A stretch of 35,868 bases of DNA from a virus (IMGVR_UViG_2609460346_000008); one strand, 5' to 3'. Counted from the first letter of the stretch, positions 8,973 through 13,587 are shown. Notes: generated from the sequence alone by a model not told the origin. Numbers and translations: made by a program.

Positions 8973-9281
8973 TTACAAACGACTACCTGAAATGACACGT
9001 TGGTTAATTTCGTTAATACGATCCTGTGCACGTGCCATCTCGTTACTGTGGGCCATGGCGATCTGCAGTAACTGGATGCCCGGTGCAAAACGTCCGTTCT
9101 CCAGTTTCAGAGCCAGCCCTTCTTCAATGAGGGTGTTGAGTGCCCGGTTGATGTTTGCCGGTGACTCGTGCAGTGCTGTCGCCAGTTCACCGTTAGAAAT
9201 ACCGTTCAGGGCATGACCGCGCAGCGCTTTGAGTACCCGGAGGATGCGACTGCCGGAGCTTGAAACATTCGTCTTACTCAT
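8973..9281 (-). CDS. Winged-helix DNA-binding protein (IclR/MarR-like HTH)
   Basis: Start at the second ATG at 9281 (MSKTNV...), which has AGAGG at proper spacing; segment ISNGELATALHESPANINRALNTLIEEGLA is HTH-like. Confidence 0.55.
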   Translation of the reverse strand: MSKTNVSSSGSRILRVLKALRGHALNGISNGELATALHESPANINRALNTLIEEGLALKLENGRFAPGIQLLQIAMAHSNEMARAQDRINEINQRVISGSRL

Positions 9282-9333
9282 CTGCATACCTCTTTTGCGA
9301 TATGTGATAACCTTTTACAAAGACTCAAAATAT

Positions 9334-9522
9334 TTAGGCCGCCTGAGCTGTTGATTTCAGTCCCAACTTCACGGCGATTTCATGGGATTTACCGTAACGG
9401 GCTTTGGTCTGCCCGTTGAGAACGCGGTATACCTCATTGCGGTTGTAGCCGTTTTCTTCTGCCCAGCGGGTGAAAGTGATCCCGCGCTGGCGGAAGAGAG
9501 CTTTGACTTGTTCTGCAGTCAT
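9334..9522 (-). CDS. Ner/Cro-like small DNA-binding regulator (first gene of the early operon)
   Basis: 62 aa, HTH-like; AAGGAG RBS 8 nt upstream; divergent from the repressor gene across an operator-containing intergenic region, as for Mu ner versus c. Confidence 0.55.
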   Translation of the reverse strand: MTAEQVKALFRQRGITFTRWAEENGYNRNEVYRVLNGQTKARYGKSHEIAVKLGLKSTAQAA

Positions 9523-9574
9523 CGTTGTCTCCTTTGTTGATGCAATGATGTTTGCCTTATATGTGTTAGATTAT

Positions 9575-9592
9575 TGCTCATAATTATGAGCA
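9575..9592. promoter_or_regulatory. Operator: 18-bp perfect palindrome TGCTCATAATTATGAGCA between ner and the repressor gene
   Basis: Perfect dyad read from sequence; a third half-site copy TTATGAGCA at 9614-9622 overlaps the repressor start codon. Confidence 0.55.
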
Positions 9593-9615
9593 TATCAAGA
9601 TAGAGATTCACTTTT

Positions 9616-9972
9616 ATGAGCAAAGATATAGGAGAGCGCGTTATTTCTGTGAGGAAGAAAGCAGGGTTGAACCAGAGAGAATTTGCAGCTCGTTTAGGTA
9701 TTTCTAATGGTGGTATCAGTCAGATTGAAAATGGAAAGGCGATGCCTGGAGGGGAGTTTCTGTTAAAGATGCATCAAGAGTTTAATGTTGATGTAAATTG
9801 GTTGCTCACTGGAATGAGCACAGATGGTATGACTAGAAACCAGAATCAAATTTCCCCAGAAAAACAAAAACTAATAGATACTTTTGACGACATGACACCA
9901 GACCAACAACGCTCATTTCTTGAGATTGGGCGATTCTATACTCAGCCAAAACCAGGAAAAATCGCAGGCTGA
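9616..9972 (+). CDS. Phage repressor, XRE-family HTH (c-like immunity repressor)
   Basis: 118 aa; HTH QREFAARLGISNGGISQIENGK near the N-terminus; no S24 peptidase domain; gene visibly A+T-rich relative to neighbours; weak RBS. Confidence 0.8.
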   Translation: MSKDIGERVISVRKKAGLNQREFAARLGISNGGISQIENGKAMPGGEFLLKMHQEFNVDVNWLLTGMSTDGMTRNQNQISPEKQKLIDTFDDMTPDQQRSFLEIGRFYTQPKPGKIAG

Positions 9973-10057
9973 TACTGACCCGGACACAAAGGACAGGTGG
10001 TTGATCTGGATGCTTTCAGAAAACATCGCCAGTGACATAGTGGAAGTTGTTTGGTTT

Positions 10058-10090
10058 ACCGGAAAGCATTGTGCTTTCCGGTTTTGTTTC
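10058..10090. terminator. Bidirectional rho-independent terminator between the repressor and methyltransferase genes
   Basis: 10-bp perfect stem ACCGGAAAGC/GCTTTCCGGT, 5-nt loop, T-rich tracts on both sides (ttggttt ... tttgtttc). Confidence 0.7.
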
Positions 10091-10853
10091 AGAAGTTGCA
10101 GATTAGCAGTTCACGGCGCGGCGTGGGTTTACCCGCCAGACTGTAGTTGATATTCACTGTCTGTATGTTCAGTCCAGTGAACACCTCGCGCATCTGCGGG
10201 ATGTCGTTCACCGAAATTATCATTTTTCCTCTGATGCACCGGGCCAGCTCTGCCAGCCGCGAGTAGTTCCCTTCAGGAAAATCCACACCATAGCCTTCCG
10301 TACCCAGGTACGGTGGGTCGCAGTAGAACAGCGTGTGCGGACGATCATAACGCTCAATGCACTGTTGCCAGTCCATGTGTTCTATGACTGTTCTGGAAAG
10401 CCGCAGGTGTGCCGCTGACAGTTCTTCTTCAATACGCAGCAGGTTGAAGCGTGGCGGGGATGTGGTGGAGGTACCGAAGCTGTGCTCTGCCACCTTGCCG
10501 CCAAACGCCTGCTTCTGAAGGTAGTAGAACCGTGCCGCACGCTGGATATCCGTCAGTGTTTCTTCCGGGGTGATCTGCAGCCATTTGTAGATCTGACGGC
10601 TGACCAGCGCCCATTTGAACTGGCGGACAAATTCTTCCAGGTGATGCTTTACCACCCGGTACAGATTCACCAGTTCACCGTTGATATCATTGATGACTTC
10701 GATCTTGCCGGGTGTCTTAAGAAAATAGAGCGCTGCTGCCCCACAAAACGGCTCCACATAACATTCATGCGCCGGAAACAGCGGCAGAATGTGTTTTGCA
10801 AGGCGGCGTTTGCCACCAATCCACGGCACGATGGGTAATGTCTGCATTTTCAT
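10089..10853 (-). CDS. dam: DNA N6-adenine methyltransferase, Dam (D12) class; orphan (no nuclease partner seen)
   Basis: Motif I FCGAAAL and motif IV DPPY (FYCDPPYLG); N-terminus PIVPWIGGKRRLA typical of the Dam family; start placed at the internal ATG at 10853 (MKMQTL...); the track ORF extends to 10943. Confidence 0.85.
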   Translation of the reverse strand: MKMQTLPIVPWIGGKRRLAKHILPLFPAHECYVEPFCGAAALYFLKTPGKIEVINDINGELVNLYRVVKHHLEEFVRQFKWALVSRQIYKWLQITPEETLTDIQRAARFYYLQKQAFGGKVAEHSFGTSTTSPPRFNLLRIEEELSAAHLRLSRTVIEHMDWQQCIERYDRPHTLFYCDPPYLGTEGYGVDFPEGNYSRLAELARCIRGKMIISVNDIPQMREVFTGLNIQTVNINYSLAGKPTPRRELLICNF

Positions 10854-10957
10854 AATCTGTAAGCCTTTTACAATTATTAAAAAATATGGCAGTCTGGTCA
10901 GGTCTCGCGAGACTGACTGAACCTTGGTCGGCTCACAGCGCATTCCTGTGGGGCGAT

Positions 10958-10989
10958 GACCAGCCCGGCTTTCGGGTGCCGGGCTGGTC
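10958..10989. terminator. Strong hairpin (12-bp perfect stem GACCAGCCCGGC/GCCGGGCTGGTC, 8-nt loop), plus-strand terminator-like
   Basis: Read from sequence; followed on the plus strand by gTTCTTTCat. Lies in the non-coding gap between dam and the 71-aa ORF. Confidence 0.45.
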
Positions 10990-11043
10990 GTTCTTTCATG
11001 ATGCGGCAGGGATGGCGGGATTTCTGTTAATGTGGTTTAGGGA

Positions 11044-11259
11044 TTATCCGGGGCGATTTTCTGACCTTATCCGGTCCAGGGCATAAGTAATACCTTCTGC
11101 AAAAACAGAAGTATCAAACTGCTTTTGTATTCCCTGAAAATGAAAAGCGGCACGACAGACACTCAGTTCTCCGCGATGTAACCGGATAATATCTTCCAGA
11201 ACATTGTTCACTGCTTCAGCACGGCGCTGATGTTCTGTTAACGTTAATCGGGGATTCAT
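11044..11259 (-). CDS. Hypothetical protein (71 aa)
   Basis: AAGGAG RBS 7 nt upstream of the ATG at 11259, but the start codon overlaps the start of the opposite-strand ORF; one of the two may be spurious. Confidence 0.35.
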   Translation of the reverse strand: MNPRLTLTEHQRRAEAVNNVLEDIIRLHRGELSVCRAAFHFQGIQKQFDTSVFAEGITYALDRIRSENRPG

Positions 11260-11260
11260 G

Positions 11261-11662
11261 ATGCACTCCTTAAATGATGATTTTTATGCACTCACCGGCA
11301 AAATATTCTGCCGATTACTGAACACGCATCCGGCACCTCAGGTTTTGATTTATTCTGGTTTTTTCGATATTCCGGACCAGGTTGATCACGACCAGAAAAA
11401 GTGCCGGTATTTTATTGATACGCTGATATGGCTTCGGGATAACAGCTATATTCGTTACTCTCAGTTGCTGGCTGTGGGAGCGGCTGATGTCGTCCTCACG
11501 GAAAAAACGCTCCGTCTGCTCAATGCCACGCCGACCCTTCTGCAGCCCCGGCCCGCACCATTTAAAGAGTCACTTCTGGATGCAGTAAAAACCGGTGAAA
11601 ATGCAGTCATCGCTGAACGCGTATCCCGGATTATGAGTTACGTGTTTAATGAACGTAAGTGA
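11261..11662 (+). CDS. Hypothetical protein (133 aa), convergent with the P-loop gene
   Basis: Open frame with coding-like codon usage; GGGGA 6 nt upstream of the ATG at 11261; 3' end overlaps the P-loop gene's 3' end by 25 bp. No family recognised. Confidence 0.4.
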   Translation: MHSLNDDFYALTGKIFCRLLNTHPAPQVLIYSGFFDIPDQVDHDQKKCRYFIDTLIWLRDNSYIRYSQLLAVGAADVVLTEKTLRLLNATPTLLQPRPAPFKESLLDAVKTGENAVIAERVSRIMSYVFNERK

Positions 11663-12366
11663 GGTTTATCCGCTGTCTGCATAATCCCGATAGCCAGTGC
11701 GAGGGGAAGTAATTCCGGGGAAGTTCTTTCAAACAGCGATTCCCATTCTCCTCTCGCCATCACTCTGTCCAGCCCGCCCTCCAGTTGCATTTCAGCAATC
11801 TTCCTGATTTCCCGGAACAACGCCGCTTTGATCTCTTCATGCTCAGCTTTATTTTCCGGTGTCAGAAGGTATTCGTCGAAGAACCGGGGAGGCTGGTTAA
11901 TCGGGATGTGTTCCTGTTTGCCGTACTTCGGAGACGAACAACATTCTGTTGGCTGACCGGTGAGTTTACGTAACTCCTTCATGAGCAGCTCCTGATCGTA
12001 AACTGTCATCAGTGCCGCAATGGTGGCATGCAGTGCATCGGGCAGTATCCAGGGTTGCCGGCCCGTGGGGCATATAACATCCAGCAGCTCATTCCTCCGA
12101 CAGATACGCTCCTCGCCGTATGACAACAGGCCCTGTCCCGTGTATTCCTCCAGCCTGATCACTGTGCCAGCCCGTGGTTTCTGCCATGTGCTCAGATCAT
12201 CCCCACTCATACGGCGCTCACCGTCCACGTCTGCGGCGTCGACAATGACGCTGTTTCCGAATTCCTGTTTCACCACTTCCTCTATCCGCGCCAATATGTA
12301 ACTTTTACCGCTGCCCACAGGACCGGACACGGTGACAGTGATGACCGGATTCAGTGTCTGCGTCAT
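11638..12366 (-). CDS. P-loop NTPase-like protein (242 aa) with uncharacterised C-terminal domain
   Basis: Walker A GPVGSGKS near the N-terminus (residues about 15-22); strong RBS GAGGAGA 7-8 nt upstream of the ATG at 12366; divergent from the lysis cassette; C-terminal about 160 aa unrecognised. Confidence 0.65.
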   Translation of the reverse strand: MTQTLNPVITVTVSGPVGSGKSYILARIEEVVKQEFGNSVIVDAADVDGERRMSGDDLSTWQKPRAGTVIRLEEYTGQGLLSYGEERICRRNELLDVICPTGRQPWILPDALHATIAALMTVYDQELLMKELRKLTGQPTECCSSPKYGKQEHIPINQPPRFFDEYLLTPENKAEHEEIKAALFREIRKIAEMQLEGGLDRVMARGEWESLFERTSPELLPLALAIGIMQTADKPHLRSLNT

Positions 12367-12428
12367 ATCGTATTCTCCTCTGTGAATAATTCATCGTTTA
12401 TCCTGCACATCCCGTATCCCCGGCTCTC

Positions 12429-12447
12429 TTAACGCGCTTTAAAATCC
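12429..12447 (+). promoter_or_regulatory. Putative late promoter element P1 (ttaacgcgcTTTAAAATCc) upstream of the lysis/head operon
   Basis: One of four copies of TTAA-N5-TTTAAWATC; its 3' end lies 49 nt upstream of the ATG at 12497. Confidence 0.4.
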
Positions 12448-12496
12448 TTCGCGCCCTGTATTTGTGATGCTGTCTCCACCAGACAAGGAGACACAC

Positions 12497-12847
12497 ATGA
12501 AAAACCTGAAAAAATTCATTCCCCCTGTTAAAAAACCTCGCCTCAGCGGCTGGCTGCTGACCTCAGTGCTGTTGCTGGGCACCATCGCTCTGGTCTCGCC
12601 ACAGCAGTTGCCTGTTGTGATCTACAAGCTGGCACTCATCACGCTGGCAGCAGTGCTGGGTTACTGGCTTGACCGTTCGCTCTTCCCCAAAGCCCGTCCC
12701 GGTCAGTACCTGAAACATGACGACAGGCTGATGGCTGATGGGCGTTTCCCGGTACAGACCGGCCTTCACCTGGTGTTTTCTGCTGCGTTAATCCGCCGTG
12801 CACTGATTGTTGCAGCGGTCTGTCTGGCTGTTGCGATGGGGCTTTAA
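12497..12847 (+). CDS. Membrane protein at the head of the lysis cassette (holin/antiholin candidate)
   Basis: Start ATG at 12497 with AAGGAG 6 nt upstream (track ORF starts at 12464); three predicted hydrophobic helices; immediately precedes the lytic transglycosylase. C-terminus is hydrophobic, which is atypical for a classical holin. Confidence 0.5.
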   Translation: MKNLKKFIPPVKKPRLSGWLLTSVLLLGTIALVSPQQLPVVIYKLALITLAAVLGYWLDRSLFPKARPGQYLKHDDRLMADGRFPVQTGLHLVFSAALIRRALIVAAVCLAVAMGL

Positions 12848-12849
12848 TC

Positions 12850-13587
12850 ATGAACTGGCCGCAGATCACCTGGATTGTATGCATGTCCCTGAAACTGGCT
12901 TTCGAAGCCTTTAGGGTCTTCATCAGAACCGAACGCCTGTCAGTCCGCGCCGGGACCTTTCTGGTTCATATGGCACGGGTATTCTTTGTCGCAATGTTGC
13001 TCTGGTGTGGCGGCTTCTTCAGTCAGGCCCGCGCAGCGCAGCCTCCGCAGGCAGCGCTGCAGTATCGCGATGATGTGATCCGTAATGCCCGGCTTGAATG
13101 GGGACTGTCTGCGCCGGTGGCTGATTTCGCTGCGCAACTGCATCAGGAAAGCGGCTGGCGACCTGATGCGATCTCGCCGGTTGGCGCTCAGGGACTGGCG
13201 CAGTTCATGCCCGCCACCGCCGACTGGATAAGTCAGTTGATGCCGGGGCTTAACAGCCGTGAGCCATTTAATCCGGCATGGGCCATCCGGGCGCTGGTCA
13301 GCTATGACCGCTGGCTGTGGCAGCGCGTCAGCGCCGCCAGTGACTGCGAGCGTATGGCCATGACACTGTCGGGCTATAACGGTGGTCTGGGCTGGGTACA
13401 GCGGGACAGGCGGCTTGCATCACAAAAAGGGCTGGACAGCACCCGCTGGTTTGGTCATGTCGCCACGGTGAATGCCGGACGCAGCACTGCCAGCTGGCGG
13501 GAGAACCGTCATTATCCCCAGCGCATCCTGTTCACGCTGGCCCCGCGTTATCTCTCATGGGGAGGGGCAAGCTGTGTGGGTACGTAA
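12850..13587 (+). CDS. Endolysin: soluble lytic transglycosylase (SLT domain), probably membrane-tethered or secreted (SAR/signal-type)
   Basis: SLT motif ...QESGWRPDAISPVGAQGLAQFMP...; weakly hydrophobic Gly/Ala-rich segment MARVFFVAMLLWCGGFFSQARAA ahead of the catalytic domain; alternative start at the ATG at 12970. Confidence 0.8.
   Translation: MNWPQITWIVCMSLKLAFEAFRVFIRTERLSVRAGTFLVHMARVFFVAMLLWCGGFFSQARAAQPPQAALQYRDDVIRNARLEWGLSAPVADFAAQLHQESGWRPDAISPVGAQGLAQFMPATADWISQLMPGLNSREPFNPAWAIRALVSYDRWLWQRVSAASDCERMAMTLSGYNGGLGWVQRDRRLASQKGLDSTRWFGHVATVNAGRSTASWRENRHYPQRILFTLAPRYLSWGGASCVGT

Follow-up and report, generated by a model that had tools for sequence, protein, structure and literature searches.

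Two divergent open reading frames (ORFs) whose start codons share the same few bases raise a simple question: is one of them an annotation error, or do two genes on opposite strands really begin on the same DNA? The pair lies in a window of 35,868 nucleotides, the whole of the viral stretch IMGVR_UViG_2609460346_000008. The region shares 99% identity with Escherichia phage PhiKM (Bcepmuvirus) and is found as a prophage in E. coli chromosomes, which identifies the window as a BcepMu-like prophage of E. coli. The local gene order, based on the ORF list together with annotation, Pfam or PHROG matches, comprises an HTH repressor-like gene (9616-9972, plus strand), a D12-class dam methylase gene (10089-10853, minus), a small gene of 71 aa (11044-11259, minus; phrog_4490), a large gene of 134 aa (11258-11662, plus; phrog_2266; 133 aa if it starts at ATG 11261), and a P-loop gene of 242 aa (11638-12366, minus; phrog_3787). 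To the right of the 242-aa ORF follow a holin gene, an SLT endolysin gene and late genes, all on the plus strand. The HTH repressor-like genes of the prophage lie at 8973-9972, its immunity region is at ~8973-9972, and the head-to-head pair lies outside it.

The annotation conflict over the pair is present in public records. PGAP calls both genes in E. coli E-1246, the small one as WP_001069609, with a 2-nt overlap, and the GenBank record of PhiKM (PQ738613) contains the 71-aa gene and not the 134-aa gene. The same PhiKM record also omits the HTH repressor-like gene at window positions 9616-9972 and has a 41-aa minus-strand ORF instead. The dam start likewise varies by record, giving 284 aa in PhiKM (the long ORF, from 10943) and 254 aa in PGAP (from 10853). 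In the long form, Pfam D12 matches only from residue 41 onwards, and a promoter-like site on the minus strand (10901-10873) falls within the coding sequence; both points favour the start at 10853.

The plus strand at the junction reads GGGGATTCATGATGCACTCCTT. Its core, CATGATG (11257-11263), serves both strands: CAT at 11257-11259 is the start codon of the minus-strand gene, and ATG 11258 and ATG 11261 lie in one plus-strand frame, giving 134 or 133 aa, respectively. These starts, taken from the sequence and the ORF list, are the ones given in an earlier sequence-only reading of this DNA. That reading had also placed AAGGAG upstream of the minus-strand start; the motif is there (11266-11271, CTCCTT on the plus strand), at a measured distance of 6 nt from the small-gene ATG rather than the 7 nt reported. 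Codons 3-5 of the large gene contain this Shine-Dalgarno (SD) sequence, and its duplex with the anti-SD (-8.7 kcal/mol) ranks in the top 2% of the local background. The GGGGA that had been noted upstream of the plus-strand ORF is an SD-like sequence at 11250-11254 (plus strand; duplex -5.7 kcal/mol), within codons 2-4 of the small gene. It lies 3 nt before ATG 11258 and 6 nt before ATG 11261, so the latter is the better spaced start. Use of ATG 11258 produces a 2-nt overlap with the small gene and use of ATG 11261 a 1-nt gap. Whichever is used, both ribosome-binding regions share ~22 bp (11250-11271), as expected from the earlier statement that the two initiation regions occupy the same DNA. 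In the P2-like, L069, L072 and L082 loci described below, the overlapping ATG is the only one available.

If only the 71-aa or only the 134-aa gene were real, the other would be a chance open frame. Such a view could appeal to the PhiKM record, which calls the 71-aa gene alone, to three related loci (L069, L072, L082) in which gene callers skip the small partner, and to the absence of Pfam and NCBIfam matches for both proteins. It is nevertheless extremely improbable in light of a comparison with Serratia, where BcepMu-like prophages (L003-L006) carry, in order, dam, a 73-aa gene (minus), a 139-aa gene (plus), an 89-aa gene (minus) and the holin gene, with an identical CATGATG core at the junction and GGAGG as the SD of the minus-strand gene. 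The small proteins of E. coli and Serratia are 30% identical in a gapless alignment (E 6e-11), and the large proteins are 52% identical (E 3e-42). When each of the six frames from one genus was compared with each of the six from the other, the small region was conserved in the annotated frame alone (score 94 versus at most 33 for the other 35 pairs), and the large region scored best in the annotated frame (344 versus at most 168). Both ORFs that PGAP calls also have full-length PHROG matches (71 aa to phrog_4490, 1.6e-52; 134 aa to phrog_2266, 4.2e-43). Of 5,426 complete E. coli genomes, 503 (~9%) have the pair; AR_0069, with 100% identity, and JJ1887 are among the strains that carry the prophage. 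The size of the large-protein family and the substitution ratios of the P2-like homologues, both given below, also count against a spurious ORF. Thus, given conservation in the annotated frames, purifying selection on the P2-like homologues and recurrence in unrelated phage backbones, comparative evidence indicates that both ORFs are genuine genes and not an annotation error. The sequence-only reading had left a choice between a spurious ORF and an unusual head-to-head overlap; the overlap stands, and the spurious ORF does not, since both frames are conserved and the pair recurs. Two apparent relatives of the small protein with 73-79% identity (P0007 and P0010) were set aside, as they look like frameshifted assemblies.

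In a tblastn search, the large protein matched relatives with ~31% identity in three P2-like phages, Midge, ST147-VIM1phi7.1 and FSL SP-004, for which depositors had independently called a 63/64-aa minus-strand gene and a 143-aa plus-strand gene with a 2-nt overlap. We fetched 65 loci from the two clades, consisting of public phage records and an E. coli chromosome, contigs with the Serratia homologues, three GTDB genome loci (the only ones that a scan of genome contigs confirmed) and 55 IMG/VR loci; among them, 40 different sequences are represented for the small protein and 40 for the large. In all 65, a minus-strand ORF of 63-86 aa starts at the CAT of the CATG that it shares with the ATG of the large gene. 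By chance, a C would precede the ATG with a probability of ~0.25 and the antisense frame would stay open for at least 63 codons with a probability of ~0.05, i.e., (61/64)^63, so that ~1% per gene would be expected. Set against 65 of 65 loci and purifying selection on both proteins, this estimate places the head-to-head layout beyond chance.

The large-protein family extends well past these two clades. With a cut-off of E<=1e-3, an exhaustive profile search yielded 1,105 cluster representatives, almost all of them 125-160 aa long. Among 11 sampled distant lineages, four have a head-to-head small partner and seven do not. The partners in L069/L070 (80 aa; L069 2013-2252, minus), L072 (64 aa; 1549-1740, minus) and L082 (75 aa; 1278-1502, minus) share the CATG overlap, and that in L073/L074 (90 aa), also head-to-head, starts 4 nt from the large-gene ATG; the 64- to 80-aa partners in L069, L072 and L082 were all missed by annotation pipelines. 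These distant partners (phrog_25421) are homologous among themselves (pairwise E 1e-7 to 1e-11), and an HMM built from three of them matches the L082 partner at 2e-18. Their similarity to the 71-aa protein of the window is weak (E 2.6e-4 to 1e-3), and in a search with the distant-partner HMM over 490 window ORFs the 71-aa protein ranked second. Between the 63/64-aa partners of the P2-like phages (phrog_2454) and the 71/73-aa partners, hhalign detected no similarity; the small partner of the P2-like phages may for this reason have been substituted rather than inherited. Taken together, these comparisons indicate that the head-to-head layout is a family trait, conserved across distantly related phages. 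Several distant partners carry a cysteine cluster at the C-terminus (CRHCCGC, CHCCNG, CRCCRCCGH) that is absent from the 71-aa protein. In an 89%-identical copy (L022, IMGVR_UViG_3300018478_000099) the large gene is cut to 40 aa and the small gene is intact; either decay of one partner or faulty assembly could explain this.

The sequence-only reading had proposed that conservation and synonymous sites be compared in each frame, and on both counts the annotated frames of the two genes hold up. Divergence among the E. coli copies is too low for dN/dS to be informative, and the ratios come from the P2-like clade (Nei-Gojobori; mean dS ~0.9), where the small gene has a ratio of 0.16 and the large gene one of 0.08. 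Within this clade the codons that carry the partner's SD sequence are frozen. Codon 5 of the large gene is Leu CTC in all 36 distinct sequences, and its complement, GAG, is the core of the small-gene SD. Codon 4 of the small gene is Ser TCC in 34 of 34 sequences and codons 2-3 are invariant, so that codons 2-4 (CAT/AAT/TCC), whose complement GGAAT(T/A)TG forms the SD region of the large gene, show zero synonymous variation. Elsewhere, 4- to 6-fold degenerate codons mostly have a synonymous entropy of 0.5-2.1 bits (range 0.18-2.13), and the only other invariant ones in the large gene are codons 59, 61 and 64.

These three codons fall in a trough of synonymous diversity that spans codons 36-64 of the P2-like large gene (e.g., L008 631-717), where normalised entropy is 0.17-0.35 versus ~0.6 elsewhere. 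The trough may hide a promoter of the small gene, an RNA element or a recombination tract; it contains a promoter candidate, TAGTCA-16-TAAATT, that ends 96 nt before the small-gene ATG. An inverted repeat in Midge that could sequester the small-gene SD was dropped because it is not kept in the clade consensus.

Across the lineages, the small-gene SD lies in the top 0.5-3% of the local background in 9 of 11 and has a duplex energy of -5.8 to -10.6 kcal/mol in 10 of 11. The SD of the large gene is weaker (-3.3 to -7.4 kcal/mol) and is absent in L082. From the frozen codons and the conserved motifs we conclude that both SD sequences are under selection inside the codons of the partner and, from the same two lines of evidence, that both genes are translated from leadered mRNAs. 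The alternative is a pair of leaderless mRNAs, each with the A of its ATG as the first base and driven by back-to-back divergent promoters, giving transcripts that do not overlap. The geometry would permit this, as CATG sets the two A residues one base apart, and the large gene of L082 would fit it for want of an SD. We consider it very improbable, given that strong small-gene SDs with canonical spacing occur in 10 of 11 lineages and SD-like runs precede the large gene in most, that precisely the SD-encoding codons show no synonymous variation at all, and that two sets of -10/-35 elements serving start sites 1 bp apart would have to interpenetrate.

Where the transcripts begin is constrained by the surrounding signals. 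Between dam and the 71-aa gene, at the left edge of the pair, a GC-rich hairpin (10958-10989) with a T-rich tail (together 10958-10997, plus strand; -34.2 kcal/mol, z -5.2) has the orientation of a rightward terminator. A hairpin followed by T6 lies at the equivalent place in Serratia, and L009 has a terminator for rightward transcription after its portal gene. These signals make it unlikely that the large gene is reached by rightward read-through, and its promoter should accordingly be located within the small gene. On the other strand, no terminator was found between 12366 and 11260, so the small gene could be fed by leftward read-through from the 242-aa gene, alongside or instead of an internal promoter. 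The P2-like loci have a conserved leftward terminator ~140 nt beyond the small gene. To the left of the pair, a promoter-like site for dam is located downstream of the hairpin, and a sigma-70-like site, TTTTCA-16-TACAAT (10847-10874, plus strand), precedes the hairpin and its T-rich tail by ~85 nt; the resulting element (10847-10997) could be a small RNA or a plain rightward terminator that insulates the pair. An Rfam scan of 9000-13000 gave no match.

Consensus scans and a cross-clade position-weight scan found no convincing sigma-70 promoter near the junction, only weak candidates. The plus-strand candidates do not keep their positions between E. coli and Serratia. Both have a minus-strand -10 candidate, TATTTT, whose end is 41 nt from the small-gene ATG. 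This hexamer forms the middle of an imperfect palindrome, CGGCAAAATATTCTGCCG (11296-11313), within codons 13-18 of the large gene; the palindrome core, GGCAAAATATTCTG, is the same in the two, down to the rare codons ATA and CGA. The palindrome overlies a conserved protein motif, and we did not find it in the P2-like clade; its role as candidate operator and promoter remains speculative.

Both genes could be real and the overlap still reflect mere compaction, with each gene transcribed by passive read-through from flanking operons and no regulatory coupling between them. A leftward route from the 242-aa gene through the antisense strand of the large gene into the 71-aa gene and dam would meet no minus-strand terminator from 12366 to 11260. 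In Midge, moreover, the leftward gpA-DinI genes precede the small gene; strong junction promoters were not found, and phage genomes are compact. We regard this account as rather doubtful. The exact CATG overlap is retained in lineages with unrelated flanks (tail genes, a portal gene, dam), and the rightward terminator upstream of the pair argues against a passive supply of the large gene. Transcripts that carry both SD sequences would also be antisense to each other over both ribosome-binding sites, so that some interplay seems hard to avoid.

The predicted folds give some indication of what the two proteins might do. AF2 models the small protein as a three-helix bundle (pLDDT 82.9; helices at residues 7-28, 34-47 and 51-67), for which only generic structural neighbours were found. 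The large protein is predicted to consist of an N-terminal winged-helix fold and a C-terminal helical hairpin. Its structural matches include winged helices with protein-protein roles, in Scc1, RPA32 and cullin, and DNA binding is thus only predicted, because such domains also serve protein-protein interactions. In the Midge annotation, weak HHpred evidence led to the name putative transcriptional regulator for the large protein, and the winged-helix protein is a probable DNA-binding regulator. Scans of both proteins and their relatives with Pfam, NCBIfam and PADLOC gave nothing significant; no Pfam family was reached at E<=1 by the large protein of the window, and none by its relatives, no PDB sequence match fell below E 0.05, and no PADLOC-DB v2 family matched the small and large proteins of three clades. 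Neither protein revealed a toxin-like, nuclease or membrane domain, and a literature search by accession number returned no papers on them.

The 242-aa gene to the right may also belong with the pair. It converges on the large gene and overlaps its 3' end by 25 nt. The encoded protein has an N-terminal P-loop (GPVGSGKS), and its C-terminal ~55 residues match the distant-partner HMM (E 2.4e-6; pairwise E 1e-6 to 4e-4), which makes this C-terminus closer to the distant partners (phrog_25421) than the 71-aa protein is. It is also homologous to the 89-aa protein of Serratia, where that domain stands alone in the same place. By these similarities, the cassette of this clade may extend to three genes, the 242-aa gene being the third, and a partner-like domain would then be present on either flank.

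The pair is not bound to one set of neighbours. KP12, a BcepMu-like phage of Klebsiella, keeps dam and the lysis genes and has a different, 188-aa gene in the slot (L078 4456-5022); its dam-side homology with the window stops at ~10999. Cargo varies at the dam-holin slot of BcepMu-like phages, the 188-aa gene being unrelated. The KP12 record is filed under Vequintavirinae despite a Mu-type transposase and a BcepMu-like layout. In the P2-like phages the pair lies between gpA and gpQ, beside cos and without dam, and other copies are found between tail genes or, in L072, next to an AbiJ/Abi_C gene. Gene content and position across these phages indicate that the pair is a portable two-gene accessory cassette of temperate phages, both BcepMu-like and P2-like. 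The earlier proposal that either the 71-aa gene and dam form one leftward operon or the 133-aa gene is a lone rightward gene is therefore a false dichotomy: P2-like phages have the pair without dam, and KP12 keeps dam with another gene in the slot.

The gpA-gpQ interval of P2-like phages is a hotspot that holds antiviral systems (PMC9122126). The location of the P2-like copies there, the AbiJ/Abi_C gene beside L072, the variability of the BcepMu-like slot and the partner-like domain of the neighbouring 242-aa P-loop protein would all suit an effector/regulator module for inter-phage competition (defence, exclusion or a toxin-antidote-like function), in which the small protein would be made only if the winged-helix protein were absent or inactivated. 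Like the gpA-gpQ morons of P2 (old, tin, PARIS), the pair is a small autonomous insert in variable slots flanked by terminators (PMC9122126); unlike that antiviral cargo, it has no PADLOC match or known defence domain. Since the small protein is a plain three-helix bundle, neither protein bears a toxin-like, nuclease or membrane domain, and position in a hotspot is circumstantial, we rate a competition module as unlikely. Nor does a type II toxin-antitoxin system describe the pair, whose genes lie on opposite strands and in which Pfam, NCBIfam and PADLOC found no toxin-antitoxin family.

Switches with facing promoters of the 186/P2 type are reportedly the subject of Callen et al. 2004. In 186 (pR/pL, CI/Apl) and P2 (Pe/Pc, C/Cox), facing promoters drive divergent genes and produce interfering transcripts that overlap at their 5' ends (PMC3675496, PMC5001618). 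The present pair resembles them in its divergent genes and would also do so in promoter arrangement if its promoters face each other. It differs in that 186 and P2 have a real intergenic promoter region with start codons far apart, and here there is none and the starts share CATG. The proteins of the pair are also unrelated to CI, C, Apl or Cox, have no regulator match in Pfam or PHROG, and are encoded outside the immunity region at 8973-9972. In the Ecl18kI restriction-modification system, transcription of R begins opposite the start codon of M (PMC2760811). The likeness there is again one of divergent genes, which in Ecl18kI have facing promoters; the differences are a non-coding spacer with an operator and an endonuclease and a methyltransferase that are not homologous to the pair. 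Compared with 186, P2 and Ecl18kI, what is new is the nil intergenic DNA, the fusion of the start codons into CATG and the unrelated proteins. With MarR/PadR-type regulators, whose genes lie divergently to those of their targets, the large protein has its predicted winged-helix fold in common; it has no Pfam MarR, PadR or HTH match, and its C-terminal helical hairpin differs.

In geometry the pair belongs to the divergent overlaps, i.e., genes on opposite strands that overlap at their 5' ends. These form the rarest class in prokaryotes (331 versus 12,737 codirectional overlaps, of ~15,000 in 58 genomes), a rarity that has been attributed to the cost of packing initiation signals, and they are often suspected to be mis-annotations (PMC2174442). 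The overlap described here is of this class and differs in being deeply conserved, with both SD sequences demonstrably under selection.

Considering these observations together, we think it probable, with appreciable room for doubt, that the pair is a conserved, portable head-to-head cassette with reciprocal, antisense-coupled expression. The cassette combines a winged-helix protein (~135-145 aa) with a three-helix protein (~63-90 aa) whose starts share CATG, with no intergenic DNA and the SD of each gene inside codons 2-5 of its partner. Because each SD is within the other ORF, each mRNA must begin inside or beyond the partner gene. Transcription would then come from facing (convergent) promoters, whose placement we infer, or from read-through, and the 5' ends of the mRNAs would be perfectly complementary over both ribosome-binding sites. 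Transcriptional interference and antisense occlusion of these sites could follow, and as far as the layout can tell, reciprocal, possibly mutually exclusive, expression of the two proteins is the most likely outcome. A stronger proposal is that of a self-contained toggle, in which buried facing promoters, complementary ribosome-binding sites and a winged-helix protein acting on an operator in its own gene would allow one protein or the other to be made, but not both; this we put forward tentatively, as a possibility that is more readily doubted than the cassette itself.

Gene callers and GenBank records drop one partner inconsistently, yet the pair is found in about one in eleven complete E. 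coli genomes. It provides a clean natural model for the superimposition of two translation-initiation regions and probably of two promoters. If the pair acts as a bistable switch or as a competition module of phage hotspots, it would represent a new regulatory architecture among prophage accessory genes. If the toggle is true, several families of temperate phages would carry a portable switch in their accessory and defence slots, gating some payload.
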